Notes: a model not told the origin generated them from the letters alone. DNA of 64,000 nucleotides from an uncultured Pseudomonadales bacterium (GCA_964653045.1 CAZZBW010000002.1:298-64297); one strand, 5' to 3'. Counted from the first letter of the stretch, positions 17,295-32,473 are shown. Numbers and translations are program-made.

Positions 17295-18365
17295 TTATTT
17301 TATTAACCAACGCAAAGTAACCACATAAATTAACCAGCTGATAATTTTTTGCCAAAAGTTAATAATGAGACGGTCAATGATAACAATAGTACTGACAACT
17401 TTATGTGCGAAACTGTCATCCTTATTATCTTCGATCGTATCCAAGTCGGTACTCACACCTAATACCACTGGCTCGCTTAAACCAATTTCTTTGGCACTAC
17501 CAAACTTGAGTTGATTAGATGCTTGCTCAATCGCAATTAGATTTTCTTCTTTGATTAGCTGAGACTGCTGGTCATTATTCTGGGGTACCACCGATTCCGG
17601 CACGATCAGATAACTAGCCGTAGTTAGATCTTTGAGCAAGTTAGTGCCTTCGCCATTATTTTCCAACACTAGCGATGAAGGCAAGAATCTAACTTGGGTT
17701 AATCCAGCCTGCTTTGCTTTAAATACAGCAGTAGCAAACACTCCCCGCTCGGCAAAAAAACCGGGGTTGGGTAAACCCCCACTAATCCGGCCATACCCAA
17801 GCTCATTATCAATTTGCTTCTGAATAAAAATACTGGCAAAAGAATCTTGTGTGACTATGTCAACTAACTCTAACGATCGAGGATCGAACACAAAATCAGA
17901 CTGAATGGCATTAATCGGTTTCTTTATCCCAACCAGCTCGATCGGCATGAGAAAGGTTTCACCAATTGCGTATTGCCCTTCAGATGGAATCACAAAAGTA
18001 ATAGTTTTTTCGGTTAAATTAAACCCAGATCGAGCAAGAATTGTTCCCTCTAGCACCACCATCCCCATAGAAACCATGGAAATGAGTAAGATCAAAAATG
18101 CATTTAAAATACTGGAACGAAAGTTTTTCGGTGCAGAAACTTTTTCATCAGAAACATAACTCCGACAAAAAGGACAGACATCGCCTGTCTTACGTGTTTG
18201 GCACATCAGACAAGGAATTGATCCAGGAGCAAGTAACCACCAAACCGGGTACATTAGCGCCAAAAAGACCCCAAAAAAAGCTAGCAAATGTCCCAAGAAA
18301 AACGAGGCAATCACTAACGCGAACAGGCGAAAAAAGATGGTCAGAATCGAGGCTCGCTGTTGCAT
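17295..18365 (-). CDS. hypothetical membrane protein with zinc-ribbon motif (first gene of the surface-protein operon as read 3' to 5')
   Basis: Two N-terminal TM helices, CLMCQ...CPFC zinc ribbon, a third TM helix, then an extracytoplasmic domain. Confidence 0.45.
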   Translation of the reverse strand: MQQRASILTIFFRLFALVIASFFLGHLLAFFGVFLALMYPVWWLLAPGSIPCLMCQTRKTGDVCPFCRSYVSDEKVSAPKNFRSSILNAFLILLISMVSMGMVVLEGTILARSGFNLTEKTITFVIPSEGQYAIGETFLMPIELVGIKKPINAIQSDFVFDPRSLELVDIVTQDSFASIFIQKQIDNELGYGRISGGLPNPGFFAERGVFATAVFKAKQAGLTQVRFLPSSLVLENNGEGTNLLKDLTTASYLIVPESVVPQNNDQQSQLIKEENLIAIEQASNQLKFGSAKEIGLSEPVVLGVSTDLDTIEDNKDDSFAHKVVSTIVIIDRLIINFWQKIISWLIYVVTLRWLIK

Positions 18366-18391
18366 TTTTAGCTGATACTAAATAATACCAC

Positions 18392-19447
18392 TTATTCCTT
18401 CTCTACCCAATACATTAAAATTGAAAAATCAATAATATCGCAGCGTTGGTCCGCATTCAGATCGCAGGTTGCTAAATTCTGTTTCACTGGATAGTAGGCA
18501 TTCCACCAATGCTCTGATATCCGGTCAAGCATAAATGGATCTAATCTTCCAGATTGATTAAAATCATACTGACGCAAAATTTCGGGGAGCGACTCAACAG
18601 TTGGTGCAACAACTACATTCGGTTGACCAAAATCGAGTTTACCATCGCTGATTACCGTTGGCGCTGGTGTCATGACTGAATCTGTCGTTCCTTCACCTTC
18701 ATCATCGCTGTCGTCACCAGCTCCTGGGGATTGAGTGGGAGTGGGCGTGGGTAAAGGAGTTGGAGTTGGCGACGGGACTTGAAAGAACAGCACGCTGAAA
18801 CTCCCTACATTAATTTCTTGGCTAGCAAACCCATGATAAATGACTGTGGCGACAACTGGGAAAGTTACACCGGGCTGAAGATTAACAGCTGAGATTGATC
18901 CCGACCAATACCCTTGCTCACCAGCGGTGAATGAGAGAAAGTAATCAGCGCCAACCATCAGCTCCACCACACTTCCTGGTGGAGCCCAACCAGAAATTAG
19001 CAGTTGCTCATCGGGTAAAACCTGAGTGGCAGAGAGCTCAGCTGTAGGGGGAAAAACTATGTTCGAGAGGGTAGTCTCGACAGTTGGAGTGAGATAGACT
19101 GAGTACTCGACTGTGTCGGTCATCGATCCAGATGGAAGGTGAGTGGAACTCAACTGAAAAACTTTGTTTTCTGGGGTCTGAGCGGTAAGGGTTTTGGTGA
19201 AAAAACCTTGCTCGTCACTAAGAGCCGTGCCGACGGCCACGCCGTTTTCTTTGATGGTCACTAATGAGTTTGGCGCTGTCCAGCCGGAAAAAGTGACAAC
19301 CGTGTCACCGACGTCAATACTGAGAGTCAGCTCAGTTTGAGCTTTAGCGGAAGATAAACCACCCCACATGCCCACAATTACCAAAAAAATTCCTATCCAA
19401 AATTTCACTCTTAAGTTCAAAAACAGCGGGCAGATGCGCGTGCTCAT
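18392..19447 (-). CDS. secreted protein with Pro/Thr linker and C-terminal dockerin-like tandem Ca-binding repeats
   Basis: Signal peptide; PSPTPTPLPTPTPTQSP linker; DFNQSGRLDPFMLDRI and DLNADQRCDIIDFSILMYW resemble dockerin repeats. Confidence 0.5.
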   Translation of the reverse strand: MSTRICPLFLNLRVKFWIGIFLVIVGMWGGLSSAKAQTELTLSIDVGDTVVTFSGWTAPNSLVTIKENGVAVGTALSDEQGFFTKTLTAQTPENKVFQLSSTHLPSGSMTDTVEYSVYLTPTVETTLSNIVFPPTAELSATQVLPDEQLLISGWAPPGSVVELMVGADYFLSFTAGEQGYWSGSISAVNLQPGVTFPVVATVIYHGFASQEINVGSFSVLFFQVPSPTPTPLPTPTPTQSPGAGDDSDDEGEGTTDSVMTPAPTVISDGKLDFGQPNVVVAPTVESLPEILRQYDFNQSGRLDPFMLDRISEHWWNAYYPVKQNLATCDLNADQRCDIIDFSILMYWVEKE

Positions 19448-19462
19448 GGCAAATAATCTTCC

Positions 19463-20410
19463 TCATTCTGTTGGGTCCAAGCCCCGAAATAATATTTTAA
19501 GAGCCTTGGACAACCTTTTTCTGATTTTCACTAAGATGATCATGACTATCAGGGCTCCCACCGCTATTCCAGCCAGCAACTTATATGGCAGAACGAAAAA
19601 AGTCACAGAAGCGCTGGCCAACTCGGTTTTTTGACCTGCAGCCACAGAAATAGTGGCGACATACCGGCCAAACAGTCTATCTTTATTCCACTGCGTCTCA
19701 ATCCGACGAATCGCTTGAGGCAAAACGTTACGCTGGTCTAGATCAAATTTATCCACTACCCGACCAAACACATCAGTAATGGTAATACTTCCTTTGACCT
19801 TAATATGAACATTGCCGGCATTGCTGACCCTGAGCACAAAATCTACTGGGGCTCGCTCAAAGAGTTCCTTAGTGGTACTAAACTCCTCGATCGCCCACGA
19901 CTCTTTGACCTCGCCTGCAACTCTGAGCAAGATCAGCGCACCTATCTCTTGGACCACTGATGCACCCTGTGCATTTGGTCCAGCTCCGCCAGTTTTGAAC
20001 ACCACTGAAGCAAAGTGCCCACCGGGCTCAGCATTATCTGGAACTGGGATAAAAATCGTGAAGGTTTGATTAGAACGGGGAGGAATAACTGCAGTAACAG
20101 GTGAAACTTGGATCCACTCGGCAAGGGTGTTGGTCAGCTTTTCGCCACTTAGCTCAACGGAACCCTCCTCGCCCCGTGCCACAAATAAGCGCTTATCAAC
20201 ACTTATTTCTAACGGTTTATCACCTGCGTTTTCAACTTTGAGTGTGTTTGTCAAAGTATCACCGCGATTGGCAGATAACTCAAAAGTGGGAGGAGTAATA
20301 ACTAGCCCTGTTTCTTGTGCCAAAACTAGAGAAGCTGAAATGCCAAAGCAAAAAACAAATAGCAAGCAGAATAACGAAAGGACTAAAGTTACTTTCGCAA
20401 GATGTCTCAT
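19463..20410 (-). CDS. cell-surface protein with N-terminal signal and C-terminal TM anchor (DUF916-like architecture)
   Basis: Signal peptide, about 250-aa beta-rich ectodomain (LVITPPTFEL...), C-terminal TM plus basic tail; paralogue of 21551-22495. Confidence 0.5.
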   Translation of the reverse strand: MRHLAKVTLVLSLFCLLFVFCFGISASLVLAQETGLVITPPTFELSANRGDTLTNTLKVENAGDKPLEISVDKRLFVARGEEGSVELSGEKLTNTLAEWIQVSPVTAVIPPRSNQTFTIFIPVPDNAEPGGHFASVVFKTGGAGPNAQGASVVQEIGALILLRVAGEVKESWAIEEFSTTKELFERAPVDFVLRVSNAGNVHIKVKGSITITDVFGRVVDKFDLDQRNVLPQAIRRIETQWNKDRLFGRYVATISVAAGQKTELASASVTFFVLPYKLLAGIAVGALIVMIILVKIRKRLSKALKILFRGLDPTE

Positions 20411-20455
20411 CGGGATTTGATTATAACTGCAAGCTTGACCAGTTGCAATTCAGGC

Positions 20456-21517
20456 TTAATAAGTTGGTGTTGCGGTATAAATTACCGTAGTGGTGTAATT
20501 ACCAGCTGGAGTACTTGAAGACACACCCACCTGATAGCCAACACGAGTGGTTTCTGTACCACTGGTTGGGGTAGCACGAGTGGCCACTACTTCATTGCTA
20601 GCAGTAAAAGCTGCCCACTTGTTTGTCGCAAATTGAGTCAAATCAGCATCATTGGTGGTGTAACCAAAGTCTTCGTCATCGACACTCTGCGGAAAGATAG
20701 TTGGAACAGTGTGGGTCCCTGAGTGATCATCAATATCTGCAGTACTATATGTTGGCTTGCCTGTATATCGAACATACACTGAATAGCCTGTCGTAGAGTT
20801 GGTGCCTACATTCAAATCATGCGCTGCGATTGCATTGGTTGCGGCAGTAACCGTACCAAGTGGAATAGTGTTAGCATCAGTCACTGTGGCTACTGTGGTG
20901 GTAGCACCATTAACAGACTGAGAACCAGCCACGCCCGTGATCGTGAAAGACAGAGATGGATCGACGGTGAGAGATACAACTTGACCGTCGGTGTAAATGA
21001 ACATGACCGTGGCATAATCGACTTCGTTGCCTGCTGTACAGCTTGCATCTGTGTAGGTATTGAAAATTGCGTAATATCCAGTGTCAGCAACTGAGCCATT
21101 AGCTACCCCATCCAAAACAACCGTCCTTCCGCTCGCACCACCAGGGGTAGCGCCAGTAACGTCAGTATACTGGATTTTTCCACCACTGACAGTCTTCGAC
21201 CAACCATTCAAACCAGTGATATAGGTACTACTGGCATTGACGGCGGCGCTGGCCAAACTCAGGCCTGATGGCGCCGATCCTCCAGCAGCAGTGGTGGCAA
21301 ACTCAAGTTCAACACACTTGACCGTTGTGGTGGTATCGACATTACTAAAGGTCGCAGTATAAGTCACAGTTGTCGCGGAGGGGCGAGAATCATCAACGCT
21401 TAATGATCCAGCGGTCAATGCATTAGCACTTGCGAGAGGGACTAAGCCAAACAACGATTGGCCGAGGAAGAAACTGACCATTAAAAGTAGGGCGGGTAAG
21501 GACTTTCTATTTGTCAT
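20456..21517 (-). CDS. secreted Thr/Gly-rich surface protein with conserved C-terminal domain ending TTTVIYTATPTY (WxL-like)
   Basis: Signal peptide; the C-terminal 200 aa are homologous to the C-terminus of the 1520-aa protein (..YSTTVIYAVTPQY). Confidence 0.5.
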   Translation of the reverse strand: MTNRKSLPALLLMVSFFLGQSLFGLVPLASANALTAGSLSVDDSRPSATTVTYTATFSNVDTTTTVKCVELEFATTAAGGSAPSGLSLASAAVNASSTYITGLNGWSKTVSGGKIQYTDVTGATPGGASGRTVVLDGVANGSVADTGYYAIFNTYTDASCTAGNEVDYATVMFIYTDGQVVSLTVDPSLSFTITGVAGSQSVNGATTTVATVTDANTIPLGTVTAATNAIAAHDLNVGTNSTTGYSVYVRYTGKPTYSTADIDDHSGTHTVPTIFPQSVDDEDFGYTTNDADLTQFATNKWAAFTASNEVVATRATPTSGTETTRVGYQVGVSSSTPAGNYTTTVIYTATPTY

Positions 21518-21550
21518 AATCGGATCCTTTAATAAGTACTCTATCTGGTT

Positions 21551-22495
21551 CTAAGAATTTTTTACTAACACGCGCAAAGCAGATAAAACTCTGCGTCTAT
21601 TCAGAGAAGCAATGATCAAAATGGCTGTCAATAGTGAAAATCCGATCGCGGATAGAAGTTGGGCGAGAGAGATGTTGAACACATAGAGGGTTAAAGTACT
21701 GGCCGGGGGCGCCGCAGACCGGAGGTCTGCGGCGCTTAACCAAGTGTTCACTTGATACACTCCCAAGCGTGGTGCCTCAGGCCAACTGAGTTTCATCTGC
21801 TTGGTATTGAGTGGCAACACAATTCGTGGCTCTGCTACCAAATAAGTTTTCTGGCCAAATGGCCAAGATTTAATCACCAGCTCAGGTTGGAGCAGTTGGT
21901 GAACATTACCATAATTTTTGAGAGTCAGGTTAAAGTTAATCTCCCCTGTTTCTGCCAGAATTTCTTTTTGTATATCTGTCAGCAGGACTTTCTCAATCCG
22001 CTCACCAGCTACATCGATAAAAATCAACGCTCCTACTCTCGGCACAACGGCACTACCTTGGAACTGCGAAAGTTCGCTTAACGCAGCAACTTCAAAAAAC
22101 ACGGTGGCATAATGGCCGCCCGGACCGAGATCGTCCGGCGCGGCCACTTCAATTTGTACTTGAGTCGTCTTCCCAACTTCAATAATGAACGATTCGGGCT
22201 CAACTCTGACCAAGTGTGACGCATCATACCGAATCCGCGCTTCAGGAGTGTCACTCAGTTCATCTGAGTTGAGCCCCATCACAAAACTCTTGACTGGCAA
22301 GGGTTGGGCAGTTTTGTTAAACACGGTTAATTCCCGCGTTTGGGTATCTCCTGCCTTGAGATCAAACTCCAAGATTGCCGGACTGATTGTTAACGAGTTA
22401 AGTGAGTCTGCATAAGCAACCCCAGATTCCAACCACCACAAACAGAGAGCAACAAAAAATCCGCTGATCAATTTAATACTGGGGTGTAACTGCAT
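21551..22495 (-). CDS. cell-surface protein with signal peptide and C-terminal TM anchor (DUF916-like), paralogue of 19463-20410
   Basis: The ORF-track N-terminal 125 aa overlap the upstream gene in another frame, so the start is moved to the ATG at 22495 (MQLHPSIKLISGFFVALCLWW signal peptide); C-terminal TM LLSAIGFSLLTAILIIASL. Confidence 0.5.
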   Translation of the reverse strand: MQLHPSIKLISGFFVALCLWWLESGVAYADSLNSLTISPAILEFDLKAGDTQTRELTVFNKTAQPLPVKSFVMGLNSDELSDTPEARIRYDASHLVRVEPESFIIEVGKTTQVQIEVAAPDDLGPGGHYATVFFEVAALSELSQFQGSAVVPRVGALIFIDVAGERIEKVLLTDIQKEILAETGEINFNLTLKNYGNVHQLLQPELVIKSWPFGQKTYLVAEPRIVLPLNTKQMKLSWPEAPRLGVYQVNTWLSAADLRSAAPPASTLTLYVFNISLAQLLSAIGFSLLTAILIIASLNRRRVLSALRVLVKNS

Positions 22496-25400
22496 AAATA
22501 ACGGTGGTTGAGTACTGCGTGGCGGCTTGACCGCTGTCGACCCGGACCTTGAGATCAACGTTGAACTGTTCATTAGTAATGGGCGTACCGCTGACTGCCG
22601 CAGTGTGATCAGCCATAATATCACCGGGAGATTCTTGATCGAATGGAGCGTAACAAGGCGGCGAACCTCCACCTGGGCATGGTGTGTCATTGAAAAGATC
22701 AACTCCTTGGATCGAGGTATCACTCGAGTGGTAACCAAAACCCAGATCTCCGGTACCCCACTCTGCTGGTGTAGCATAGCTACCTGCAGAAAAATTGGCA
22801 ATTTCGTTGGTCGGGTACAAAATTGATCTGAGTAGATCAGTGGTATAGGCACGGATGACGTAACCGGCATAAGCGTTGGTGGACGTCGTCAACGTCACTT
22901 GCTCAGTCGCAGTGTATGAATTACCTGGACCGAGATTATCGAAAGTCACATTCTCAGGAGAAACAGCAAAACTCAGAGTGGGCGCGACCAACTGGCCGTC
23001 CGAAGATGCCCCTGTACTGGTGTTACCAGCCAGATCGGTCGCGCGGACGGTGAAGTAGTACACCACTGAAGTTTGCAAGCTCTGACCACTGACAGTCACC
23101 GAAGTATCGGTACCCACATTAGTCCAGCTCACCAACTCAGTGCCACCAACTGTTGTCCCAATAGCATATTCATAGTAGTCTATTTCAGAAACAGCTTCAT
23201 TGAAACCAACAAAATTGGCGGACAAACTGGACAAAGAACCATCATTTAACATTTTATCTACTCCAGTTTCCGTCCCATCGTAAACCGTCCCATCATCGGG
23301 AGCCGTTGTATCGATTCCAAAATCACGCTCTGCCTCGGTATTGTTACCAAAACTCACCCAATCGGAGTAAGCACCAAAACTATCTTTGGTTCGAGCCTGC
23401 CAATGATACTCCATTTCATCAGGCAACGAGCTGAGAGTTACAGTAGCTTCAACTGCAGAACCAGAATAGGCCACACCAGTACCACAACCCGTCTCGACAC
23501 CAGTAAAGCTTATGTTCAACGGCTGCACCTCAACACACAGCTGGAGAGTATCCGGGTTATCAGGATCCGACACATTGGCCGTAAACACGACCGAGGTTTC
23601 ATCGGTCCAGTCACCCACGCTCAATATTGTTTGGTCAGTCTTTTCTTGAGATAAATTCGTCGGATCATTTGGCGCGGTATTCATTGAGCCAAATGAAACC
23701 AACCAATCCTGGAGTTGAGGCGAGCCAGTACCATAGGTCAGGGTCGCCTTCAGATAGATCGTGGCATAAGTGGTAGTAGAAAGACCGCTTAGATCAACTC
23801 CAGCGCTGCCATCAAAGCCAGTGGAATTACCACTCAGAGCACCATCAGGAATAATGGTCGGTGTTCCAGAGTTATCATAAAAAACTTGATAAATAATGGT
23901 GCCATTAGTTTGGTCATCCCCCACCATAAAATACCCCCAAGTGGTTTCACTGGGCTGAATCTGGGCGGCAACGATCGGCGTGGACAGCACCATGTCGGTA
24001 CCAGAAGTGACTTGAACATAGTTACTGGTGTAGTTCACTTCTGCGTTGCTGCCCAACGTGTCTGATTCGAACTGCTCGCCGTGCGTCTCAAACCAAGCAT
24101 TACCTTTGCTTAGTGAAGTATCGATGGTGAGCGACCGGCGATCCGACCAGGCACTCCACGTCTCGGTACCTGCAATATCCATCGCTCTGACTTGATAAAA
24201 ATAGGTTGTGCCGTTGGTCAAGGCATTACCCGCTTGCACCGTGTAGCTGATGGTGTCTCCTGCGGTGAAAGGATCTAGATCGGATTCGTTGCCAACATTA
24301 AGAAAGCCTAGATCTGTTTCAGAAACATCATCAATTTCAGGAGAGGTGAAACTAGGATCAGAGCTTATTTGAATTTGGTAAGTAAGATTATTGCTCTCAG
24401 TATCAGTTGATTTAAATCGAATGATTGGCGTGGTATCAGTAATTTTTGCTTTATCGTAATAGAGATTTCCTTCGATAGTTGGTTTGGTGGCTGGCGTCCC
24501 TACTGAAGTTTTTTTGGCAATCACCACGTCGCGGTAGGGAGGGAGATGCGGCTGAGTATCAAATGACAGCGTCACGTCATGAGTGTGAGTGCTTGTTGCC
24601 TGGTTTCCATAGGGCTTTTGATTCGTCCCACCACTACTTGCACTTGGTCCACCTGATGTAACAGTGGCATTGGTGTGATTATGACTGGCAGTCCCATTTA
24701 CTGAAGCATAACTACTGGCGCCCCGCAAAAACCGCTGATAAAACGCCCCACCGCTATCTGACAACGATGTCCAATTAGTACCTATTGTTCCTTCCACCAT
24801 CACAATCTCTCCACCGGTAAAATATTTATCAGCCCCACTAGTATTTTTATAAAGTAAAACGTCTATCCGATCAGGCAAGTGTGTGGCTGAAGCGTTGGTC
24901 CCAGAGACAGTGTGCGTGTGTGTATCTATAGCAAAACTCCCGGCTGCACCAGTAGCACCACCAAAATTACTGGACGCTGTCAATGATCCAGAATAATTAT
25001 GAGTGTGATTATCAGCTCCTCCAGTGCCAGTGGTATTACCCTCGCCTCGGAGAAAGGCAAGGTCTTGAGTCGAGTAACGGGTCCAACCAGTTACTGGTGA
25101 AGGTGTTGCGTCAAACATCAAAATTAAACCATCGGGAATACTGGTTGGCACACCTGTGGTATCGTACTTAATTACTTTTAGATTGCGATAAGTTGGCAGG
25201 TTGGTGCCCACTCCAGTAGAAGCACCACTCCAACCGTGAGTATGAGTGGACAATGTCTGGATCAAAGAATTATTGCGATAAGGTAGTGTTGAATTAGCCC
25301 CTGTATGACTGACAAAAGTCATACCGTGACTATGTTCAATAAGACCACCAGTGCCGCCAGAAGTGGCGGCACCACGAGGAAAGACTTGGTAATACGGTTC

Positions 25401-27035
25401 AGTTGATAAACACGATACACAAGACCAACCGGTGGGTGGGGTTGCACCATCCCAAAAGGCTAAGACGTTGTAGACAGCATCGGAAGCCACCTGCCACTGG
25501 CGCAACTCTTGAAAAATAATCGTTTCTTGATTAGTCACGGTTCCTGCACTGCTGGTGGCGGCAGAATCTGATGCAACTTCGGCATCTGGTAACGAATCAG
25601 CGTTGACGTCAGCGGATTCCGTCGAGTCTAGCACTGGCTCAAGAATCACATTACTATCTGCTTCAATCTGGTTGGAAGGAGAGGACTCGGCCGCTGCGGT
25701 TGGTGATTCGTCAGTGAAAATATCGAGATCCAACGCTCCCTCAATTACTTGCGTCGACTCCACCAACCGCAGTGGCCCCAGCAGATAAAACTGCGGGGAT
25801 ATTTCCGGAGCTTGATATTGATACCCAATTAGCAATATTTCATCTGGGTCCAGCACTTCATCCCAAATGATATTTTGCACACCGTTCTCTACGTCAATTT
25901 CAATCCGATCGTAATCGCGAAACCCGGCACCGACAAATGGTGAAATCTCAAACTCAAGTGGCACCGGCTCGATGATCGAGCCGGTGAACTCTTGTCTGGC
26001 CACCACCTCCACCATCACCGAGTAAGTGTTGGGTGGGTAAATCCGGGTGGCCGACGAGTGCTCAATCTCAAATGGGACCTCATCCCAAACCTCAATGTAA
26101 TCGCTAACAGCGTAACTACCGTTGACAGTGACTGCGCTCAGTTCTAGCTCGTATCTGCCCACTCCTCCCAACTGGTAGGCAGACTGGTAATCCGGGACAT
26201 CGGTCACTGCACTTTCTTTGCACTCAGGATTGACAGTAATTAGTCCATTAGTTGTCGACAACTCATCAACTTTTTGCTGATCGGGATGATAAATTTTTAA
26301 ACTTAGATCTGCGTCACACACCATCGCGCCATTTTCATCCAACACGGCAAAAGCCAATTGCGCTTCTTCTTCTGGTAAATAGATTGATCGATTGGCATTC
26401 AGCGCTAAAACCCCCCAGGTGAAATCTTGGGCGAAAACTTCCCGATCTCCTTCGTAAACCTCAAGGTGAAACTTGCCCGGCCGGACACTGCCCACGGGCG
26501 TGACCAACAGCTGCCCATCTTCGAAGCTAGTTTGAATCGTCACTGGCTCCTCAGCATAATCTGTCACCACAATTTCCAACTCTTCTGGCTGATAATCTAG
26601 CAGCTCCAACTCGATTCCCTCGTTGATCTGGAAATCCTTGTCCTTCATTGTCAGCTTACGCATCCGCAATAACTCTTTGATAATGTTCCAAACTTGCGTC
26701 GGCTTGCTTTTTTCGACCTTTTGATCAGCATCAGTTTCGTCTGGAGCGATCGTCGGAGTAAGCGTTGGTGAAATTGATGGTGTAATTGTGGGGGAAATAG
26801 TTGGCGCCAAATCAGTTGGCTGAGGAACAAGTGCATCGGTTGGCTCGGCTTCAGCCGAGCCAACCGATGGTTCTAGCGTGATAGTAGGTAATTCTGGAGC
26901 ACTATGGATTGGCTGAATATTCGGAATAACAGATTCACTCACCTGTGCTTCTGCCTCGGCAACCATTCGGCCAACTCCCAACGAAAAACCAACCAACACA
27001 AACAAAGCCACGATAGTTGGCTTAAACTTAATCAT
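22473..27035 (-). CDS. giant secreted surface adhesin (1520 aa) with Ig/FN3-like domains, phage tail-fibre-like HxH / LPxYR repeats and WxL-like C-terminal domain
   Basis: Signal peptide, Pro-rich linker, acidic linker, and four to five repeats containing HxH (THTH, NHTH, SHNH) followed by LPxYR / FLRG motifs (aa about 565-840); C-terminus shared with 20456-21517. Confidence 0.6.
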   Translation of the reverse strand: MIKFKPTIVALFVLVGFSLGVGRMVAEAEAQVSESVIPNIQPIHSAPELPTITLEPSVGSAEAEPTDALVPQPTDLAPTISPTITPSISPTLTPTIAPDETDADQKVEKSKPTQVWNIIKELLRMRKLTMKDKDFQINEGIELELLDYQPEELEIVVTDYAEEPVTIQTSFEDGQLLVTPVGSVRPGKFHLEVYEGDREVFAQDFTWGVLALNANRSIYLPEEEAQLAFAVLDENGAMVCDADLSLKIYHPDQQKVDELSTTNGLITVNPECKESAVTDVPDYQSAYQLGGVGRYELELSAVTVNGSYAVSDYIEVWDEVPFEIEHSSATRIYPPNTYSVMVEVVARQEFTGSIIEPVPLEFEISPFVGAGFRDYDRIEIDVENGVQNIIWDEVLDPDEILLIGYQYQAPEISPQFYLLGPLRLVESTQVIEGALDLDIFTDESPTAAAESSPSNQIEADSNVILEPVLDSTESADVNADSLPDAEVASDSAATSSAGTVTNQETIIFQELRQWQVASDAVYNVLAFWDGATPPTGWSCVSCLSTEPYYQVFPRGAATSGGTGGLIEHSHGMTFVSHTGANSTLPYRNNSLIQTLSTHTHGWSGASTGVGTNLPTYRNLKVIKYDTTGVPTSIPDGLILMFDATPSPVTGWTRYSTQDLAFLRGEGNTTGTGGADNHTHNYSGSLTASSNFGGATGAAGSFAIDTHTHTVSGTNASATHLPDRIDVLLYKNTSGADKYFTGGEIVMVEGTIGTNWTSLSDSGGAFYQRFLRGASSYASVNGTASHNHTNATVTSGGPSASSGGTNQKPYGNQATSTHTHDVTLSFDTQPHLPPYRDVVIAKKTSVGTPATKPTIEGNLYYDKAKITDTTPIIRFKSTDTESNNLTYQIQISSDPSFTSPEIDDVSETDLGFLNVGNESDLDPFTAGDTISYTVQAGNALTNGTTYFYQVRAMDIAGTETWSAWSDRRSLTIDTSLSKGNAWFETHGEQFESDTLGSNAEVNYTSNYVQVTSGTDMVLSTPIVAAQIQPSETTWGYFMVGDDQTNGTIIYQVFYDNSGTPTIIPDGALSGNSTGFDGSAGVDLSGLSTTTYATIYLKATLTYGTGSPQLQDWLVSFGSMNTAPNDPTNLSQEKTDQTILSVGDWTDETSVVFTANVSDPDNPDTLQLCVEVQPLNISFTGVETGCGTGVAYSGSAVEATVTLSSLPDEMEYHWQARTKDSFGAYSDWVSFGNNTEAERDFGIDTTAPDDGTVYDGTETGVDKMLNDGSLSSLSANFVGFNEAVSEIDYYEYAIGTTVGGTELVSWTNVGTDTSVTVSGQSLQTSVVYYFTVRATDLAGNTSTGASSDGQLVAPTLSFAVSPENVTFDNLGPGNSYTATEQVTLTTSTNAYAGYVIRAYTTDLLRSILYPTNEIANFSAGSYATPAEWGTGDLGFGYHSSDTSIQGVDLFNDTPCPGGGSPPCYAPFDQESPGDIMADHTAAVSGTPITNEQFNVDLKVRVDSGQAATQYSTTVIYAVTPQY

Positions 27036-27102
27036 GATTACTGCTAATCATAATCTAATTTGGTGTAGAACTTCAACTTAAGATAGGTAATAGTCAAGAT
27101 TT

Positions 27103-27924
27103 TTACTTTTTTGACTTAAATAATCTATCGTATTCACTTACTTTAGCGGTGTAATCTCCCCAATTTTCCGGGGTTAATTCTGACAAACTTACTATCATTG
27201 GTACTTCAGACACGGGACAAGGAATTTGCTGAGCAATTTCACTTGCTCTAGTATATGGAATTGGTTTACCCAAATGGATTTTAAGATGAAAAAATTTAGA
27301 TTTATTCGGTTCAGTTTGCCCTGGCGGCCAAAACTGATACGCCCCAACAAGACATATCGGAATGAAGTATAAATTGCTTGAATATTCTTCACAAATCGCA
27401 TCAATTGCATCTGTTACTAATGCGGGTGCCTCACTCGCACCAACTTCGCGGGATCTAGTTCCTTGTGGAAACACACCTAGGATTGCGCCTTGTTTAAAAG
27501 CACGCATAATAGGAAGCCAAGCAAATGGGTTTTGCTTACGATCAACTTCTGAACCATCTTGAACTTGAATTACTGGACGTAGATCCAAATTTAATAGTTT
27601 TAGAGCAATTGCAGCATCTCCCAACTGACCCATCCGACCATCAAAAAATTTCCCAGAAATTGGACCAACCAGTGTAGTATTCAGTTTTTTTGCCAACCTA
27701 TAAAACAAGGCAATATCGGCCACACTCCAGTGAGGAGGTAAAATTACTAACTTGCTACCTGATTCTTGCAGTTCCTTGATTTCTTTCCAATGCTCTTTTC
27801 CCCTGATCGGAATTAAGTCAAAAACTGTCGCTAAAGTTTTGGCAATCGTTTCTGGAGTGGGGTGAGTCAAACCCTCCGATACAGAGTTGAACTTTGTGTG
27901 CAAAACTTCAGAAATTCTGCTCAT
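27103..27924 (-). CDS. lysophospholipid/glycerol-3-phosphate acyltransferase family protein (PlsC-like)
   Basis: HWSVAD (Hx4D) acyltransferase motif; about 273 aa. Confidence 0.55.
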   Translation of the reverse strand: MSRISEVLHTKFNSVSEGLTHPTPETIAKTLATVFDLIPIRGKEHWKEIKELQESGSKLVILPPHWSVADIALFYRLAKKLNTTLVGPISGKFFDGRMGQLGDAAIALKLLNLDLRPVIQVQDGSEVDRKQNPFAWLPIMRAFKQGAILGVFPQGTRSREVGASEAPALVTDAIDAICEEYSSNLYFIPICLVGAYQFWPPGQTEPNKSKFFHLKIHLGKPIPYTRASEIAQQIPCPVSEVPMIVSLSELTPENWGDYTAKVSEYDRLFKSKK

Positions 27925-27935
27925 GTTTTCCTTAT

Positions 27936-28943
27936 TTAAAAATAAGAGGTGTATAAGCGTCTTATCAAACCAATAATTGTGCCAATCATCACAACTGCAT
28001 CAGCAACTAACTGTAAGATCGGTAAAAAAGGCCAGCCTAGTGGCGCGTAACGATAGTTCTTGGCTATTGACCAAAGCAAGTAAATAATTGCAAGAACAAT
28101 TAAGACTAATAAATAAGAGAAGTTATTAGTGAATAAAAAAATCAAGAATAAGGTAAGGGCGAAGAGATAGCGGCCGAAAATCAGCAAGACTTTCGGCCGC
28201 CACAGTCCCGCATACGCGTCGCCGCGGGCGAAGCGGTAAATGGTGCGAATAAACTCAGACCAAGAGCGATGAGGAATCCAACCAATGCGCGCCCGCGGGG
28301 TAAATACAATTTTTTCTTTCAAGTTGGCGCGCAACATCTTGCGCGCCAACGCATAATCTTCATTATCACTCAAGCTCTGATCAAATCCACCAAGCTTGGT
28401 TAAAACAGATTTTTTAATTAGCATTGACCTGGTGGTTGGCAACATAAATCCAGCTTTAATTACCCGCGGCATCGCCAGTGCATAACAGCTAAACGCTTGC
28501 TCTAACCCGGTTTTTGTCAGTGGGTAAAAATAACCACTGACAATCTCAGTTCGATTGTCATGCTGAGCGCAGTCGAAGCATAGACCCCCATCTACAGCTT
28601 TAACTAATTCTTCCAACCAGTCTTGATCGGGCACACATCCAGCGTCAGTAATCGCTATCCACGGAGATTTGGCTAACTGAACTGCCCGATTGCGCCCCAC
28701 ACTCCGGTTGCCGCGTTTTTGCTCAACAACTAAAGAAATTTTTTTGCTTTTTCGTGCTAATTGTTGCAGCTTATCCCATGTTCCATCTGTTGACCCACCG
28801 TCAACAACAATCACCTCACGCGGTAAATACGATTGGGCCGTCAGCGCTTTGATCAGCGAATCAACCGACCCAACTTCGTTCAACACCGTCACGATCACGC
28901 TGACGGCCAACTGTTTTTTCTGAATATTTTTTGTTTTTTTCAA
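27936..28943 (-). CDS. family 2 glycosyltransferase with C-terminal transmembrane region
   Basis: VSVIVTVLNE...VIVVDGGSTDGT...ITDAGC GT2 motifs followed by three to four TM helices. Confidence 0.7.
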   Translation of the reverse strand: MKKTKNIQKKQLAVSVIVTVLNEVGSVDSLIKALTAQSYLPREVIVVDGGSTDGTWDKLQQLARKSKKISLVVEQKRGNRSVGRNRAVQLAKSPWIAITDAGCVPDQDWLEELVKAVDGGLCFDCAQHDNRTEIVSGYFYPLTKTGLEQAFSCYALAMPRVIKAGFMLPTTRSMLIKKSVLTKLGGFDQSLSDNEDYALARKMLRANLKEKIVFTPRARIGWIPHRSWSEFIRTIYRFARGDAYAGLWRPKVLLIFGRYLFALTLFLIFLFTNNFSYLLVLIVLAIIYLLWSIAKNYRYAPLGWPFLPILQLVADAVVMIGTIIGLIRRLYTSYF

Positions 28944-29968
28944 TTATTTACTCCCCACAATTTCAGGTACTTGTCAGCTAACTTTTTCCAAGTTTGTTTT
29001 TTCGCCCAGTCGTACGCTTGTTTAATCATGTTATTTTTTTGAGCTTCGCTCAGTTTCTTCAATTTCTCCGCTAGCTCCCGTCCACTTTCAGCGATTACCA
29101 TCCACTTGCTGGCCGGATGCATAGTCAAGTAATCTTTTTTGATTTGGTTATTATAAACAGCCAAAACCAAGCGCTTGGATTGCATTGCCTCAAGGATTGC
29201 CAAATATCTAGACACAAAAGCGTACTCATGTGAGTTATATAATTGATCTACCCGAGTTTGCCAAAGATAAAATTTCACATCTAATTTGCGCCGCTGCACA
29301 AATTTTTTCGCTCGGTTTAGAAATGAGCCTTCTCCATAAACATCTAAGTTTATTTTTGGCTGGATACGTTGAAGCGCTTCCAAATACATCATGATCCCTG
29401 TATCTTCTTCCAGCCGTCCCAAGAAAGCGGCAGAGTTTTTTTTCGCAGTAGTTTTATCAGAAACACCTTGTTGATCGGCGGCACCATAAATGATTAGGTC
29501 TGGATTTTGGCCATACCACTTTTTGATAAACTCGCCCACAGCAATGGTTCTGTATGAAAGTTTCTCCACCAGCCGTCGGTGCCACACTGCTTGCCAACGA
29601 GGCAAACCAGGACCCTCATAACCATGGAAAGTGGTAAAAACTTTTTTGTTAAAATAAAAAATTCTCTGCGGTAAGTACCACCAAAACACATCGTGAATAT
29701 GGACAATATCTGCGTCGACAAACAGTTGCCGGTGTTGCCAAATCCACTGCCAAGTTTGAAGCTTGTGGTTAAAGTGCTGGAAAGGTAAACGAAACACATT
29801 GACACCGGCAATAATCTCATTGGATTTCAGTCCGGGCTGATTTGAAGTGGTTAAAACAGTGATGCTAAAGCCACGGTGAATTAATTCTTGGGCTAGCTGG
29901 GCGGTGTGCTTCTCCACACCGCCCACCGCCGGCGCATATCTTGGTACCAAAAACAATATTTTTTTCAT
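28940..29968 (-). CDS. family 4 (GT-B) glycosyltransferase
   Basis: N-terminal KILFLVPRYAPAVGGVEKH signature; GT-B fold length. Confidence 0.7.
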   Translation of the reverse strand: MKKILFLVPRYAPAVGGVEKHTAQLAQELIHRGFSITVLTTSNQPGLKSNEIIAGVNVFRLPFQHFNHKLQTWQWIWQHRQLFVDADIVHIHDVFWWYLPQRIFYFNKKVFTTFHGYEGPGLPRWQAVWHRRLVEKLSYRTIAVGEFIKKWYGQNPDLIIYGAADQQGVSDKTTAKKNSAAFLGRLEEDTGIMMYLEALQRIQPKINLDVYGEGSFLNRAKKFVQRRKLDVKFYLWQTRVDQLYNSHEYAFVSRYLAILEAMQSKRLVLAVYNNQIKKDYLTMHPASKWMVIAESGRELAEKLKKLSEAQKNNMIKQAYDWAKKQTWKKLADKYLKLWGVNN

Positions 29969-30708
29969 TTTTTTTGCGCCAGAATAATAATGTTGGAATA
30001 ACCAAAAATCTTGCCCAATAATTCGTCAGCAACACAGACCAACTTCGAAAATCTCGGACGAATAAACTTCAAAAAAACTTTTAATCTCGACAAAAACATT
30101 ACAGATCTGAGCGGACCGTCAACAATTTTGTAATTCGATATCATTAATTTGTTGTCCTCAATTAACCTCGTAATTGAGCCGACTGAGTACCGCCGCAGAT
30201 GTCCCACTTCTTGATCAAATTTGTCAAAAAATCCGAGTTTGTAAAACACCGATGAGTTGAGCGGAGTCGACAGTATTAAATAACCATGCTTATTTAATCT
30301 AGCTGAAATATCTCGAATGAATGCAGCGTCATCGGCAATGTGTTCAATCACTTCTGAGCAAACAATCAGATCAAACTTACCTTTGATATCCCTAATACTT
30401 CCAGTTAAAAACTTGACGTTAATAATTTTTAAATTTTTGGCGTTTGCCTTTGCTAACCGAATGGCTTTGGGAGAAATATCAACCCCCACGACGATTGAGC
30501 ACTGTTGAGAAAGATACAGAGCAATATTGCCAATTCCACAACCAACATCGAGTGCCTTGGTATTTTTTGCTCCCCAAATTAAAGGTAAATGTAAGAATCC
30601 CAGAATATAACGATAGGTAAAGTCGCGAGGATCAATCAACTTTTTGATCAAACCACTTTTGTGATGAAAACCATTGTAAAAGCTAGTAATTGAGAAAGGT
30701 TTACTCAT
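29965..30708 (-). CDS. class I SAM-dependent methyltransferase
   Basis: LDVGCGIGNIALYL motif I plus IVCSEVIEH; start moved to the internal ATG at 30708 (MSKPFS), which abuts the divergent ATG at 30707. Confidence 0.7.
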   Translation of the reverse strand: MSKPFSITSFYNGFHHKSGLIKKLIDPRDFTYRYILGFLHLPLIWGAKNTKALDVGCGIGNIALYLSQQCSIVVGVDISPKAIRLAKANAKNLKIINVKFLTGSIRDIKGKFDLIVCSEVIEHIADDAAFIRDISARLNKHGYLILSTPLNSSVFYKLGFFDKFDQEVGHLRRYSVGSITRLIEDNKLMISNYKIVDGPLRSVMFLSRLKVFLKFIRPRFSKLVCVADELLGKIFGYSNIIILAQKK

Positions 30709-32473
30709 GATGAAAAATACAATTTGCCTGGTTATTCTAACACTGATGTTCTTGATCTTTCCGCCGCAAACTTTTGCTAAAAAAGTCGTGTTCGAAGATG
30801 ATTTTTCGTCTGAACTAAACAAGTGGGAATTAACGCGTGGCGGTTATTCAATCTGGAGCGTTGCAGATGGCAAGCTTCACGCCAAAGTCCTAACTTCGTT
30901 TACTATTTCCGAACTCGTTCCCACCAATCAGTACTGGGATGATAGCTGGCGAAACATTGAGTACCAATTAGAGTACACGCCAATTGCTGGTGTCGACAAA
31001 AATATTTCGTTTGGCTACAAAAATATTGATAAGTGGTACGAGATTCACTTTGTTTCCTCATTCTTTGAAGTGGTCAAGGTTGAAAATGGAGCACTCGTTT
31101 GGTCTAAAAAAAGTGATTATTCGCTGAGTAATAACAAGACGTATACATTTAATATAATTTTTCAGCATGGCAATATCGAAATAAATGTAGATAACACCCA
31201 AATCTTCAAAGATTTTGACCCGAATTTCACCGAGAACGATTACGGCAAAATCGGTTTAAAAGTTGGGACTGGGGCAGTCTACTCGACTCAAGTCATCTTC
31301 GATAATGTGGTGGTGTACGACTTAGATCAATCCCCAGACTCAGAGCTCATGCCCCACTTTATGCAAACTGATGAATCTTGGGGCGATAGCGAATATGACT
31401 CAGCCACAAAATGGTCGGATCAACCAACCATCGCGCGCTGGGGCTGCGCCTTGAGCTCAATGGCCATGATTCTCCGTAATTATCAGATCAATACGTTACC
31501 CAGCGGAGAAACAATTGATCCAAAAACACTGAACGAGTGGCTCAAATCACAGCCTGATGGATACTGGGGCAACGGCTTGCTCAATTGGTTGGCGGTCACC
31601 AGACTCACCAAACAATTAAGCACTCCAGAAGGAACGCCGGCGCTCGAATACACCAAAGAAACTGGCGAAAATTTGATAGATACCGCCCTGACCAGCGTTG
31701 AGGACAAAAAACCGGTGATTTTAGAAATCCCGGGGCATTTTTTGGTTGGCGATGGAATGACTGATGATAGGCTGGATCTTAAGATCAAAGATCCAGCCTA
31801 CTCTTTCAGTAACTTCAGCCAACACCAACAACCGCTCAAATCAGTCAGATTGTTTCATCCCAGCCACACCGATCTCTCTCACATTGCCATCGGCATTCCA
31901 CCCCAGCTCACTGGACAACTGGTAACACCATCTGGGAAAATAATTCAATTTGATCAGATTGAGTACCTAAATAATTATCTGGGTAGTAATCTCCTCCCCG
32001 ATCAAAGCACCAGTGGCTTAAAAATCGTGGAGTTACCTAAGCCAGAACTCGGTGAGTATCAACTTTGGTTGAGCCAAGAAAAATTTGGTCAATTCCAAGC
32101 CACAATTTTTACCTATGACTTAGATGGAAACGTGAGTGATCTCTCGGTTTTTGGCTTCACCGGCCAAAAACCGACGCTGTACCAACTCGATTATTCACAC
32201 TCAGGTGAGGACAGGGTTACTAAAATCAGCAGTTACTTTCAATTTAAAGAGCTGGTGCGGGAGCTAGCTCAACTCAAAGAGATTAGCAACCCGGTTATGG
32301 AAATTTGGTTACAATTTTTTGCCGATACTAATCAAGAGTGCGCCTCACCCAACCCAGCCGGATGCATCAGGTTGTTGAGACAGGCAATTAAGTCAATCGA
32401 AAAAAATATGAGTCAGACAGCCAGAAAAGCTCTGGAAGAAGAATTACGCGTCATCGAAAAAGCTGCTAAATAA
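30707..32473 (+). CDS. secreted protein with peptidase C39-like (papain-fold) domain
   Basis: Signal peptide; WGCALSSMAMIL (Cys) and downstream GHFLVGDG (His) resemble the Peptidase_C39_2 catalytic dyad; N-terminal beta-sandwich-like region. Confidence 0.45.
   Translation: MMKNTICLVILTLMFLIFPPQTFAKKVVFEDDFSSELNKWELTRGGYSIWSVADGKLHAKVLTSFTISELVPTNQYWDDSWRNIEYQLEYTPIAGVDKNISFGYKNIDKWYEIHFVSSFFEVVKVENGALVWSKKSDYSLSNNKTYTFNIIFQHGNIEINVDNTQIFKDFDPNFTENDYGKIGLKVGTGAVYSTQVIFDNVVVYDLDQSPDSELMPHFMQTDESWGDSEYDSATKWSDQPTIARWGCALSSMAMILRNYQINTLPSGETIDPKTLNEWLKSQPDGYWGNGLLNWLAVTRLTKQLSTPEGTPALEYTKETGENLIDTALTSVEDKKPVILEIPGHFLVGDGMTDDRLDLKIKDPAYSFSNFSQHQQPLKSVRLFHPSHTDLSHIAIGIPPQLTGQLVTPSGKIIQFDQIEYLNNYLGSNLLPDQSTSGLKIVELPKPELGEYQLWLSQEKFGQFQATIFTYDLDGNVSDLSVFGFTGQKPTLYQLDYSHSGEDRVTKISSYFQFKELVRELAQLKEISNPVMEIWLQFFADTNQECASPNPAGCIRLLRQAIKSIEKNMSQTARKALEEELRVIEKAAK

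Follow-up and report, generated by a model that had tools for sequence, protein, structure and literature searches.

A six-gene surface-protein locus as a likely operon for a Pam-type pilus with a proposed cohesin-dockerin base

What does a bacterium build from six adjacent genes for exported proteins that recall the WxL cell-surface systems of Firmicutes? The question is raised by a surface-protein cluster at 17295-27035 of a 64,000-nucleotide (nt) stretch of DNA, called the window here, which is labeled as coming from an uncultured Pseudomonadales bacterium (GCA_964653045.1 CAZZBW010000002.1:298-64297). A first-pass annotation had read the cluster as a divergent WxL-type cell-wall display system with no described equivalent. 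Our analysis makes it likely that the six genes form an operon for a Pam-type pilus, that is, a usher-less, chaperone-assisted donor-strand-exchange filament of a bacterium of the Candidate Phyla Radiation (CPR). A large part of bacterial diversity belongs to the CPR, many of whose members seemingly live attached to host cells. Little is known of how they attach; among the few structures linked with host contact is the Pam pilus. The claim of novelty is out of date, as the NCBIfam models NF058581 and NF058579 and a 2026 preprint on Pam pili (10.64898/2026.03.03.709456) describe this kind of operon.

Open reading frame (ORF) calling confirmed the six genes and their coordinates, all on the minus strand. 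They are named G1 to G6 in transcription order, and all positions given within the cluster refer to that strand. An N-terminal hydrophobic segment was found in all six products.

In the Pam preprint, filaments of Ca. Mycosynbacter amalyticus, a parasite of the CPR, were studied by cryo-electron microscopy (cryo-EM). The two pilins identified in them, PamA and PamB, each have a beta-sandwich N-domain, a linker strand and a truncated immunoglobulin (Ig) C-domain that accepts the linker of a neighbor, and the pili are donor-strand-exchange filaments with distant homologues in Microgenomatia that were detected by a language model only (10.64898/2026.03.03.709456). The same operon encodes PamC and PamD, two PapD/FimC-like chaperones with C-terminal transmembrane (TM) helices; PamT, a single-domain tip pilin; PamE, a third pilin; and PamR, an RbmA-like base protein that has a strand at its N-terminus and a TM helix at its C-terminus. 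WxL, DUF916, cohesin and dockerin are nowhere mentioned in that preprint. The WxL/Csc clusters of Firmicutes consist of a small WxL protein, a large WxL protein and a WxL-interacting protein (WxLIP) composed of DUF916, DUF3324 and a TM helix (PMC10599100, PMC9772566). WxL proteins are described as bound to peptidoglycan and not as pili.

The paralogues G2 and G4

G2 (21551-22495; 314 amino acids from the ATG at 22495) and G4 (19463-20410; 315 amino acids) are paralogous, with 26% identity and an E-value (E) of 2e-22. Hydrophobic segments lie at both ends of each protein, in keeping with the first-pass description of two paralogues of about 315 amino acids with a signal peptide and a single C-terminal TM helix; the helix spans residues ~275-298 in G2 and 276-297 in G4. 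We propose them as membrane-anchored chaperones 1 and 2 of the WxLIP/DUF916 type with a PapD-like fold. Their family had 163 homologues in our searches, several of which are named "DUF916 domain-containing protein [Patescibacteria]" by NCBI, and G2 matched the hidden Markov model (HMM) of the family with E 1.9e-75. The match of G4 itself to Pfam PF06030 (WxLIP_PGBD, DUF916) was weak (E 0.035, 14.6 bits); among 50 aligned family members, 47 matched PF06030, the best with 9.5e-10. In its make-up the paralogue family corresponds to a WxLIP, which combines DUF916 (PF06030), DUF3324 (PF11797) and a C-terminal TM helix.

For comparison with Firmicutes, we assembled nine WxLIPs and fourteen WxL-cluster proteins, twelve of them annotated as WxL, from plasmids of Enterococcus, Listeria, Lactococcus and Lactiplantibacillus. 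HHalign aligned the CPR chaperone family with the nine WxLIPs at 98.9% (E 1.5e-17, 300 columns). When signal peptides and TM helices were removed, the value was 97.2% (E 2.8e-11) over 216 columns covering both domains, compared to 0.3% for a reversed control. Domain 1 alone gave 96.9% and domain 2 alone gave 12.6%. An AlphaFold2 (AF2) model of G4 (pLDDT, predicted local distance difference test, 91.2) consisted of two beta-sandwiches and a C-terminal TM helix, with a long low-confidence loop at residues ~141-154. Its best Foldseek matches in the PDB were 9i1y_A and 9i25_C (E 1.5e-12), followed by CfaA, CsuC, FimC, PapD and Caf1M (E 1e-11 to 1e-8) and EcpB. Entry 9i1y is a WxLIP from Enterococcus faecium, and 9i25 is the E. 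faecium WxLIP bound to a long WxL protein.

G2 and G4 belong to one family with the Firmicute DUF916/DUF3324 WxL-interacting proteins, as had been suggested from the sequence, and their predicted fold is the chaperone fold of chaperone-usher systems. A pair of chaperone paralogues of the PapD/FimC-like type, each with a TM helix at its C-terminus, is also shared with the pam operon. Because the chaperones are homologous to WxLIPs, Pam pili become connected with the WxL clusters of Firmicutes, two systems that have been described separately. We found no paper linking Pam pili with WxL or DUF916 in a literature search that was not exhaustive.

The same homology allows a second scenario, WxL-type display, in which G3 and G1 would not polymerize but would be bound by their C-termini to the TM-anchored G4 and G2, to peptidoglycan, or to both, with the adhesin held at the surface. 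It draws on the true WxLIP kinship of the chaperones (a homologous TM-anchored two-Ig protein by HHalign at 97-99% and the top structural match), on the solved complex of a WxLIP with a long WxL protein (9i25), and on the gene order, in which each client gene is directly followed by a paralogue (G1 by G2 and G3 by G4). In WxL clusters, too, a small and a large secreted protein stand beside an anchor, and the two have a C-terminal domain in common, the large one with adhesin domains in its N-terminal part (PMC10599100). Unlike WxL clusters, the locus has a pair of WxLIP paralogues, lacks an LPXTG protein and adds a base of dockerin and cohesin; that base, made of G5 and G6, would have no role in such a display.

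The C-terminal domain of G3 and G1

G3 (20456-21517; 353 amino acids) is the proposed major pilin. Its signal peptide (residues 1-32) is followed by an N-terminal beta-sandwich (residues 33-175; 20993-21421), a conserved linker, GQVVSLTVDPSLSF (residues 176-196; 20930-20992), and a C-terminal pilin domain (residues 214-353; 20459-20878). In the AF2 model (pLDDT 90.4), strands occupy 36-174 and a C-terminal beta domain 189-351, joined by a linker of low confidence (175-188). In the family alignment, C68/C160, G178 and Y341 were invariant and G339, P351 and Y353 nearly so; in the linker, G178, V181, D186 and P187 were invariant or nearly invariant. The Gly 14 residues from the end and the C-terminal Tyr recall the conserved subunit C-terminus of chaperone-usher pili. 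One search yielded more than 265 homologues; another yielded 2161 clusters at 50% identity, of which the best 150 were inspected.

Some family members are much shorter than G3. In P0334, P0361 and P0388 (148-183 amino acids), the pilin profile matched only the C-terminal domain, or the linker and the C-terminal domain, and the same short match was seen in P0325, P0355, P0366, P0373 and P0396 (187-229 amino acids). By their sequences, these proteins are possible PamT-like or minimal pilins with an architecture like that of small WxL proteins; some may be gene fragments.

BLASTP of G3 against G1 did not detect the domain they share, and profiles were needed. The G3-family HMM matched G1 at ~1358-1520 (27-30 bits, E ~1e-8), and HHalign aligned four tip C-termini with the C-terminal alignment of the pilin family at 99.4% (E 2e-21, 141 columns). 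The first-pass annotation had recognized the sharing and had quoted the endings of both proteins exactly, but its estimate of about 200 amino acids was too long; the domain measures ~160 amino acids, or ~180 with the preceding strand.

G3 had no Pfam family match. In contrast, the NCBIfam model NF058581 (CPR_Pam_pilin_C, "Pam pilus system pilin subunit") matched residues 214-353 of G3 along its entire length of 148 positions (28 bits, E 2e-6), and it matched the C-terminus of G1 over profile positions 4-148 of 148 (27 bits, E 3.4e-6). The model was also matched by 42 of 45 G3 homologues, the best at 4.7e-12. Structural searches with the G3 model returned generic Ig/beta-sandwich matches only; neither PamA/PamB nor a WxL chain was among the matches listed, and PamA-PamD did not appear among the PDB matches. 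Judged by the profiles, the C-terminal domain of G3 and G1 is likely homologous to the Pam pilin domain. Since the domain matches the Pam pilin model, the locus likely makes a polymerized pilus rather than a non-covalent display on the cell wall. In addition, G3 resembles the filament-forming PamA and PamB in its N-terminal beta-sandwich, linker and C-terminal domain, and the hosts of both systems are CPR bacteria. The extra N-terminal domain and the strongly conserved linker argue against display, as small WxL proteins have no domain besides WxL (PMC10599100).

Searches for the WxL domain itself were negative. Pfam WxL (PF13731) was matched by 0 of 45 G3-family members at E<=1, and not by G1. 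HHalign of the pilin-type, tip-type and merged alignments against an alignment of 14 Firmicute WxL domains gave non-significant probabilities of 0.5-2.4% in local, global and low-mact modes, with scores of 16.6-21.6 compared to 13.9-16.0 for the reversed control. With a purpose-built WxL HMM, G3 gave nothing and G1 reached E 0.19, confined to its last 25 residues. When 14 tip domains were used for a profile search, all matches were of the CPR type, many being fragments, and Pfam WxL occurred in none of them. The earlier identification of the shared domain as a divergent WxL domain is not upheld by these data, with HHalign scores near the reversed control and no WxL chain among the structural matches listed.

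The resemblance that had prompted that identification is a matter of two short motifs aligning in the same order. WxL motifs 1 and 2 each have a colinear local match, namely AHDLNVGTNSTTGYSVYV versus VTDKRGTQEGWSLSV and YSTTVIYAV versus YRTTLTWNL, and these follow the patterns G-[WY]-x-[LV] and then Y-x-T-T-[LV]-x-[WY]..P. The colinearity favors display; it is statistically unsupported. No W occurs at either WxL motif position in the G3/G1 domain, which lacks the two W-x-L motifs and is not detectably part of Pfam WxL. The aromatic residue thought to replace W (Y347 of G3) is Y, L, F or H across the pilin family and is invariant only in the tip-type domain. Weighing the colinear motifs and the WxLIP kinship against a domain without significant WxL profile similarity that instead matches a pilin model, we consider WxL-type display unlikely.

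Two large WxL-cluster proteins on Firmicute plasmids (L006, 6894-9359; L009, 7660-11934) end in TIEWTLTDAP and TANWVIVNGP and were missed by PF13731 at E<=0.01; they carry no WxL annotation. From these sequences, the PF13731 model seems to miss divergent WxL domains of large proteins. Because these proteins also escape PF13731, sequence tests cannot settle a kinship with WxL at the level of the fold.

The C-terminus could also be thought of as a sorting signal (sortase LPXTG, PEP-CTERM or similar) and not as a folded domain, given a short, strongly conserved motif that ends exactly at the stop codon. However, LPXTG is absent, neither a TM helix nor a basic tail follows the motif (G1 ends in TPQY and G3 in TPTY), the cluster has no sortase or exosortase gene, and conservation spans ~160 amino acids that AF2 folds confidently into beta-strands. 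A sorting signal is, in our estimation, hardly credible.

Tip, base and assembly of the proposed fiber

G1 (22473-27035; 1520 amino acids) is the proposed tip adhesin. Besides a signal peptide (residues 1-30), it carries Ig/MG2/fn3-like domains (Pfam matches Ig_Rha78A_N, MG2 and fn3), modules with HxH motifs, and a C-terminal Pam-type pilin domain of a tip subfamily (residues ~1360-1520; 22476-22958) that ends in YSTTVIYAVTPQY and was assigned by NF058581, HHalign and HMM. The tip-type domain had a mean column identity of 66% over 14 tip proteins (last ~185 amino acids). Giant proteins at the same position in relatives have 537-3025 amino acids, with differing N-terminal parts (DUF2341, Laminin_G_3, MG2 and Gly_rich_2 domains) and the same C-terminal domain; tip-type proteins as a whole range from a complete protein of 316 amino acids (P0422) to more than 3000. 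The segment in front of the G1 tip domain is ~4 residues shorter than the pilin linker (DGQLVAPTLSF versus DGQVVSLTVDPSLSF). As in Pam pili, there is a separate putative tip protein whose only pilin part would be the acceptor domain. It differs in being a 1520-residue multidomain adhesin instead of the single-domain PamT, and the PamT model NF058579 was not matched by G1 in an NCBIfam scan. Such a hypervariable giant adhesin on a conserved adaptor domain is a plausible determinant of host range.

Residues ~515-835 of G1 (24531-25493) contain three modules of ~110 amino acids, each opening with FWDG..P.GW and each with two HxH motifs (HSH/THTH, NHTH/THTH and HNH/THTH). In locus L004, the 764-residue tip protein begins with the same module. 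Phage tail fibers contain HxH metal sites. A conserved "tail fibre-like protein" was reported near pam operons (10.64898/2026.03.03.709456). Pfam, PHROGs and PDB sequence searches with G1 and the modules gave nothing informative for the modules, and no DNA tandem repeats were found.

G5 (18392-19447; 351 amino acids) is the proposed base or adaptor of the pilus. It has a signal peptide, one or more Big_6 Ig domains (28.5 bits), a Pro/Thr linker and a dockerin-like C-terminus (residues 295-345; 18413-18565). The first pass had noted dockerin-like Ca-binding repeats. In the window copy the Dockerin_1 match is weak, with 13.5 bits compared to the Pfam threshold of 22.9 bits for PF00404; orthologues of G5 scored 23.9 (L041, above threshold), 22.3 (L002) and 18.5 bits.

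G6 (17295-18365; 356 amino acids) is the proposed membrane receptor for G5, with an N-terminal TM hairpin, a further TM segment, a cohesin domain and a C-terminal amphipathic motif. The cohesin domain (residues 123-237; 17655-17999) scored 28.8 bits, above the Pfam threshold of 24.1 bits for PF00963, and orthologues scored 29.9 (L027, above threshold), 22.6 and 18.9 bits. It had gone unnoticed in the first pass, which described a Zn-ribbon membrane protein. Four Cys of a CxxC...CxxC motif do lie between the TM hairpin and the third TM segment (residues 52-67; 18165-18212), probably on the cytoplasmic side. Most orthologues have the four Cys, and those in L003, L021 and L027 have two or three, so metal binding may not be essential. 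G6-type proteins (17295-17400 in the window; L003, L013, L015, L021, L022 and L041) end in a conserved amphipathic motif, IDRLIINFWQKI / VDRIILSLWGKV / IDRFILSWW, and a long acidic low-complexity stretch lies between the cohesin and this motif.

The way G5 ends and the presence of a G6 gene are linked across loci. A dockerin-bearing G5 with a G6-type cohesin gene downstream of it was found in 10 loci (the window, L002, L003, L014, L015, L021, L022, L027, L031 and L041), and a G5 ending in a TM helix and a basic tail, without a G6 gene, in 7 (L004, L016, L017, L018, L020, L025 and L040). Every dockerin-bearing G5 and no TM-anchored G5 is accompanied by a G6-type gene; L013, with a G6-type gene and an ambiguous G5 ending, fits neither class cleanly. 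Counting orthologues, cohesin (PF00963) and dockerin (PF00404) are found on the proposed partner proteins at the domain level. The TM form of the Ig-domain base protein in the 7 loci matches PamR, whereas G5 of the window has no TM helix and has a dockerin, with a cohesin on G6, instead. Given this alternation, we read G5 as a PamR-like base protein in which a non-covalent link between cohesin and dockerin would take the place of its own membrane anchor. Cohesin scores of G6 and its orthologues are above or near the threshold, and so are the Dockerin_1 scores of G5 orthologues, which have two Ca-binding loops. Unlike in cellulosomes, no enzymes are scaffolded; the pair appears to replace the TM anchor at the pilus base, with a polytopic membrane protein that has a four-Cys motif as the carrier of the cohesin. 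We found no earlier description of a pilus anchored to the membrane by a cohesin-dockerin pair.

Longer G5 orthologues with internal TM segments occur in L042 (1223-2794, 523 amino acids) and L013 (12045-13403, 452 amino acids). The one in L042 has a C-terminal stretch that resembles the cohesin region of G6, without a domain match. From their sequences, these proteins may be fusions of base protein and membrane receptor, which would support a functional link between the two.

Putting these parts together, a Pam-type pilus could be assembled as follows. All six products would be exported or inserted by Sec, as suggested by their N-terminal hydrophobic segments. G2 and G4 would each cap the incomplete Ig-like C-terminal domain of a subunit with a strand of their own. 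G1, with the acceptor domain as its sole pilin part, would start the fiber and end up at the tip, like FimH, PapG and PamT in architecture. G3 would polymerize below G1, its linker entering the C-terminal domain of the neighbor as in the cryo-EM structures of PamA and PamB. G5 would terminate the fiber, and its dockerin would bind the extracellular cohesin of G6, tying the fiber to the cell, as the domains and the anchor distribution suggest.

The scheme shares with the chaperone-usher pili (Pap, Fim, Csu, CFA/I and Caf1) the chaperone fold and a tip adhesin with a C-terminal pilin domain. It differs in having no usher and no outer membrane, membrane-tethered chaperones, and two-domain pilins whose donor would be an internal linker and not an N-terminal extension; family membership at the sequence level was not found. 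No usher-like protein of the outer-membrane type is encoded in the cluster, and the absence of usher, sortase and ATPase is a further likeness to Pam. From Pam itself, the locus differs in having one major pilin instead of PamA, PamB and PamE, in having no ATP synthase genes adjacent, and in belonging to a distant clade by NF058581 score, which is consistent with the detection of Microgenomatia homologues by language model only. Its lone pilin, its giant adhesin attached to a conserved adaptor domain for the tip and its proposed cohesin-dockerin anchor make the locus a distinct variant of the described Pam kind.

Several points weigh against a Pam-type pilus. The curated NCBI cut-off of NF058581 is 55 bits; every score, those of the G3 homologues included, is lower, and the scores of G3 and G1 (27-29 bits) are far below it, which puts both outside the NCBI membership rule; Saccharimonadia relatives scored similarly low (17-35 bits). 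With scores below the cut-off, the link to PamA and PamB is one of remote homology and architecture. G3 and G2/G4 were compared with the Pam proteins through the description in the preprint. The domain and fold assignments, the homologies, the synteny and the complementary distribution of anchors are what the data show; all subunit contacts, polymerization and assembly order are inferred. No filament has been seen for this clade. Finally, donor-strand mimicry by the N-terminus of G5, where G5 orthologues have in common a short conserved beta-strand reminiscent of the pilin linker (QTELTLSID in the window; 19313-19339), is a hypothesis without statistical support: a position-specific scoring matrix of the pilin linker VVSLTVDP had its best match at the mature N-terminus in 8 of 19 G5 orthologues, with scores within the null range.

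A third scenario is a cell-envelope layer or matrix, with G3 as an abundant S-layer or sheath subunit and the cohesin-dockerin pair as a general, cellulosome-like scaffold. G3 is indeed secreted, Thr/Gly-rich and a member of a very large family, and the cohesin-dockerin pair as well as glycosyltransferase genes upstream on the same strand would suit a matrix. However, Pfam and NCBIfam scans found no S-layer or enzyme domains, and strict co-occurrence with PapD-like chaperones and a tip-type protein is a trait of fibers built subunit by subunit, not of a lattice or enzyme scaffold. We rate this scenario as very improbable, and a Pam-type pilus remains our preferred explanation.

If the locus is considered in a wider frame, CPR Pam pili and Firmicute WxL/Csc clusters could be branches of one ancient donor-strand system of single-membrane bacteria, usher-less and chaperone-assisted, with WxL as a diverged Pam-type acceptor domain. 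We put this forward tentatively, as a conjecture that is somewhat more apt to be wrong than right. In a published prediction, WxLIP supplies a strand that completes the WxL sandwich (PMC10599100), which fits strand complementation. If the conjecture were true, WxLIP would be a membrane-tethered pilus chaperone rather than a binder of peptidoglycan or host, the WxL proteins of Enterococcus, Listeria and Lactobacillus would likewise be strand-complemented and possibly polymerized, and the cohesin-dockerin base would be a further modular way of anchoring such fibers. The chaperone homology makes it testable whether the WxL virulence and colonization clusters of Enterococcus, Listeria and lactobacilli are strand-exchange assemblies related to CPR pili.

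Relatives, host lineage and flanking sequence

The order of giant protein, chaperone, pilin, chaperone, Ig protein and, in some loci, membrane protein recurred in L002-L004, which represent a genome of WWE3, a JGI contig and a genome of Saccharibacteria. Of 30 loci taken from a species-level genome scan, another 12 had this order. The gene order is thus kept in relatives, a synteny check that the first pass had proposed. With a pilin family of 2161 clusters at 50% identity, the locus represents a widespread second layout of the Pam system. In the other layout, which occurs mostly in Saccharimonadia and resembles the operon of M. amalyticus, two chaperones come after two or three pilin paralogues.

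Nearly all loci with the cassette are labeled CPR. Contigs with CPR-type cassettes in L013, L019, L021 and L040 are labeled Clostridia, Nanoarchaeia or Pseudomonadales. These non-CPR labels probably stem from mis-binned or misclassified metagenome assemblies and not from true presence outside CPR. In the window, a neighboring superoxide dismutase clusters with a protein of Ca. Woesebacteria, and the host is probably a CPR (Patescibacteria) bacterium of the Microgenomatia, Woesebacteria-like. An HMM search found no further Pam-like genes elsewhere in the window.

The ATG of G2 (22495) overlaps the 3' end of G1 by 23 nt, and an alternative TTG start lies 1 nt past the G1 stop. A 439-residue mechanical ORF for G2 was rejected as an artefact that extends into G1. 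The remaining gaps from G2 to G6 are 33, 45, 15 and 26 nt. Three of them fall within the 20-45 nt given at first; the 15-nt gap and the overlap between G1 and G2 do not.

A consensus scan found a promoter-like site, TTGAAG-18-TATGAT (27047-27076, minus strand, 9/12), just 5' of the G1 start, which is a possible operon promoter on weak evidence. The top sigma-70-like match of the region was TTGCAA-17-TATAAT (20420-20448, minus strand, 10/12) in the gap between G3 and G4. As a consensus match alone, it could be an internal promoter that uncouples pilin expression from the downstream genes.

Directly 5' of G1 and on the same strand, 27103-30822 encodes a 273-residue protein without a Pfam match, glycosyltransferases of the GT2 and GT4/GT1 types, and an S-adenosylmethionine (SAM) methyltransferase. 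The pilin G3 is very Thr/Ser-rich, and a modification on Ser356 of PamA was seen in the Pam preprint (10.64898/2026.03.03.709456). The upstream glycosyltransferase and methyltransferase genes could serve to modify the pilin, or they could equally be ordinary envelope genes.

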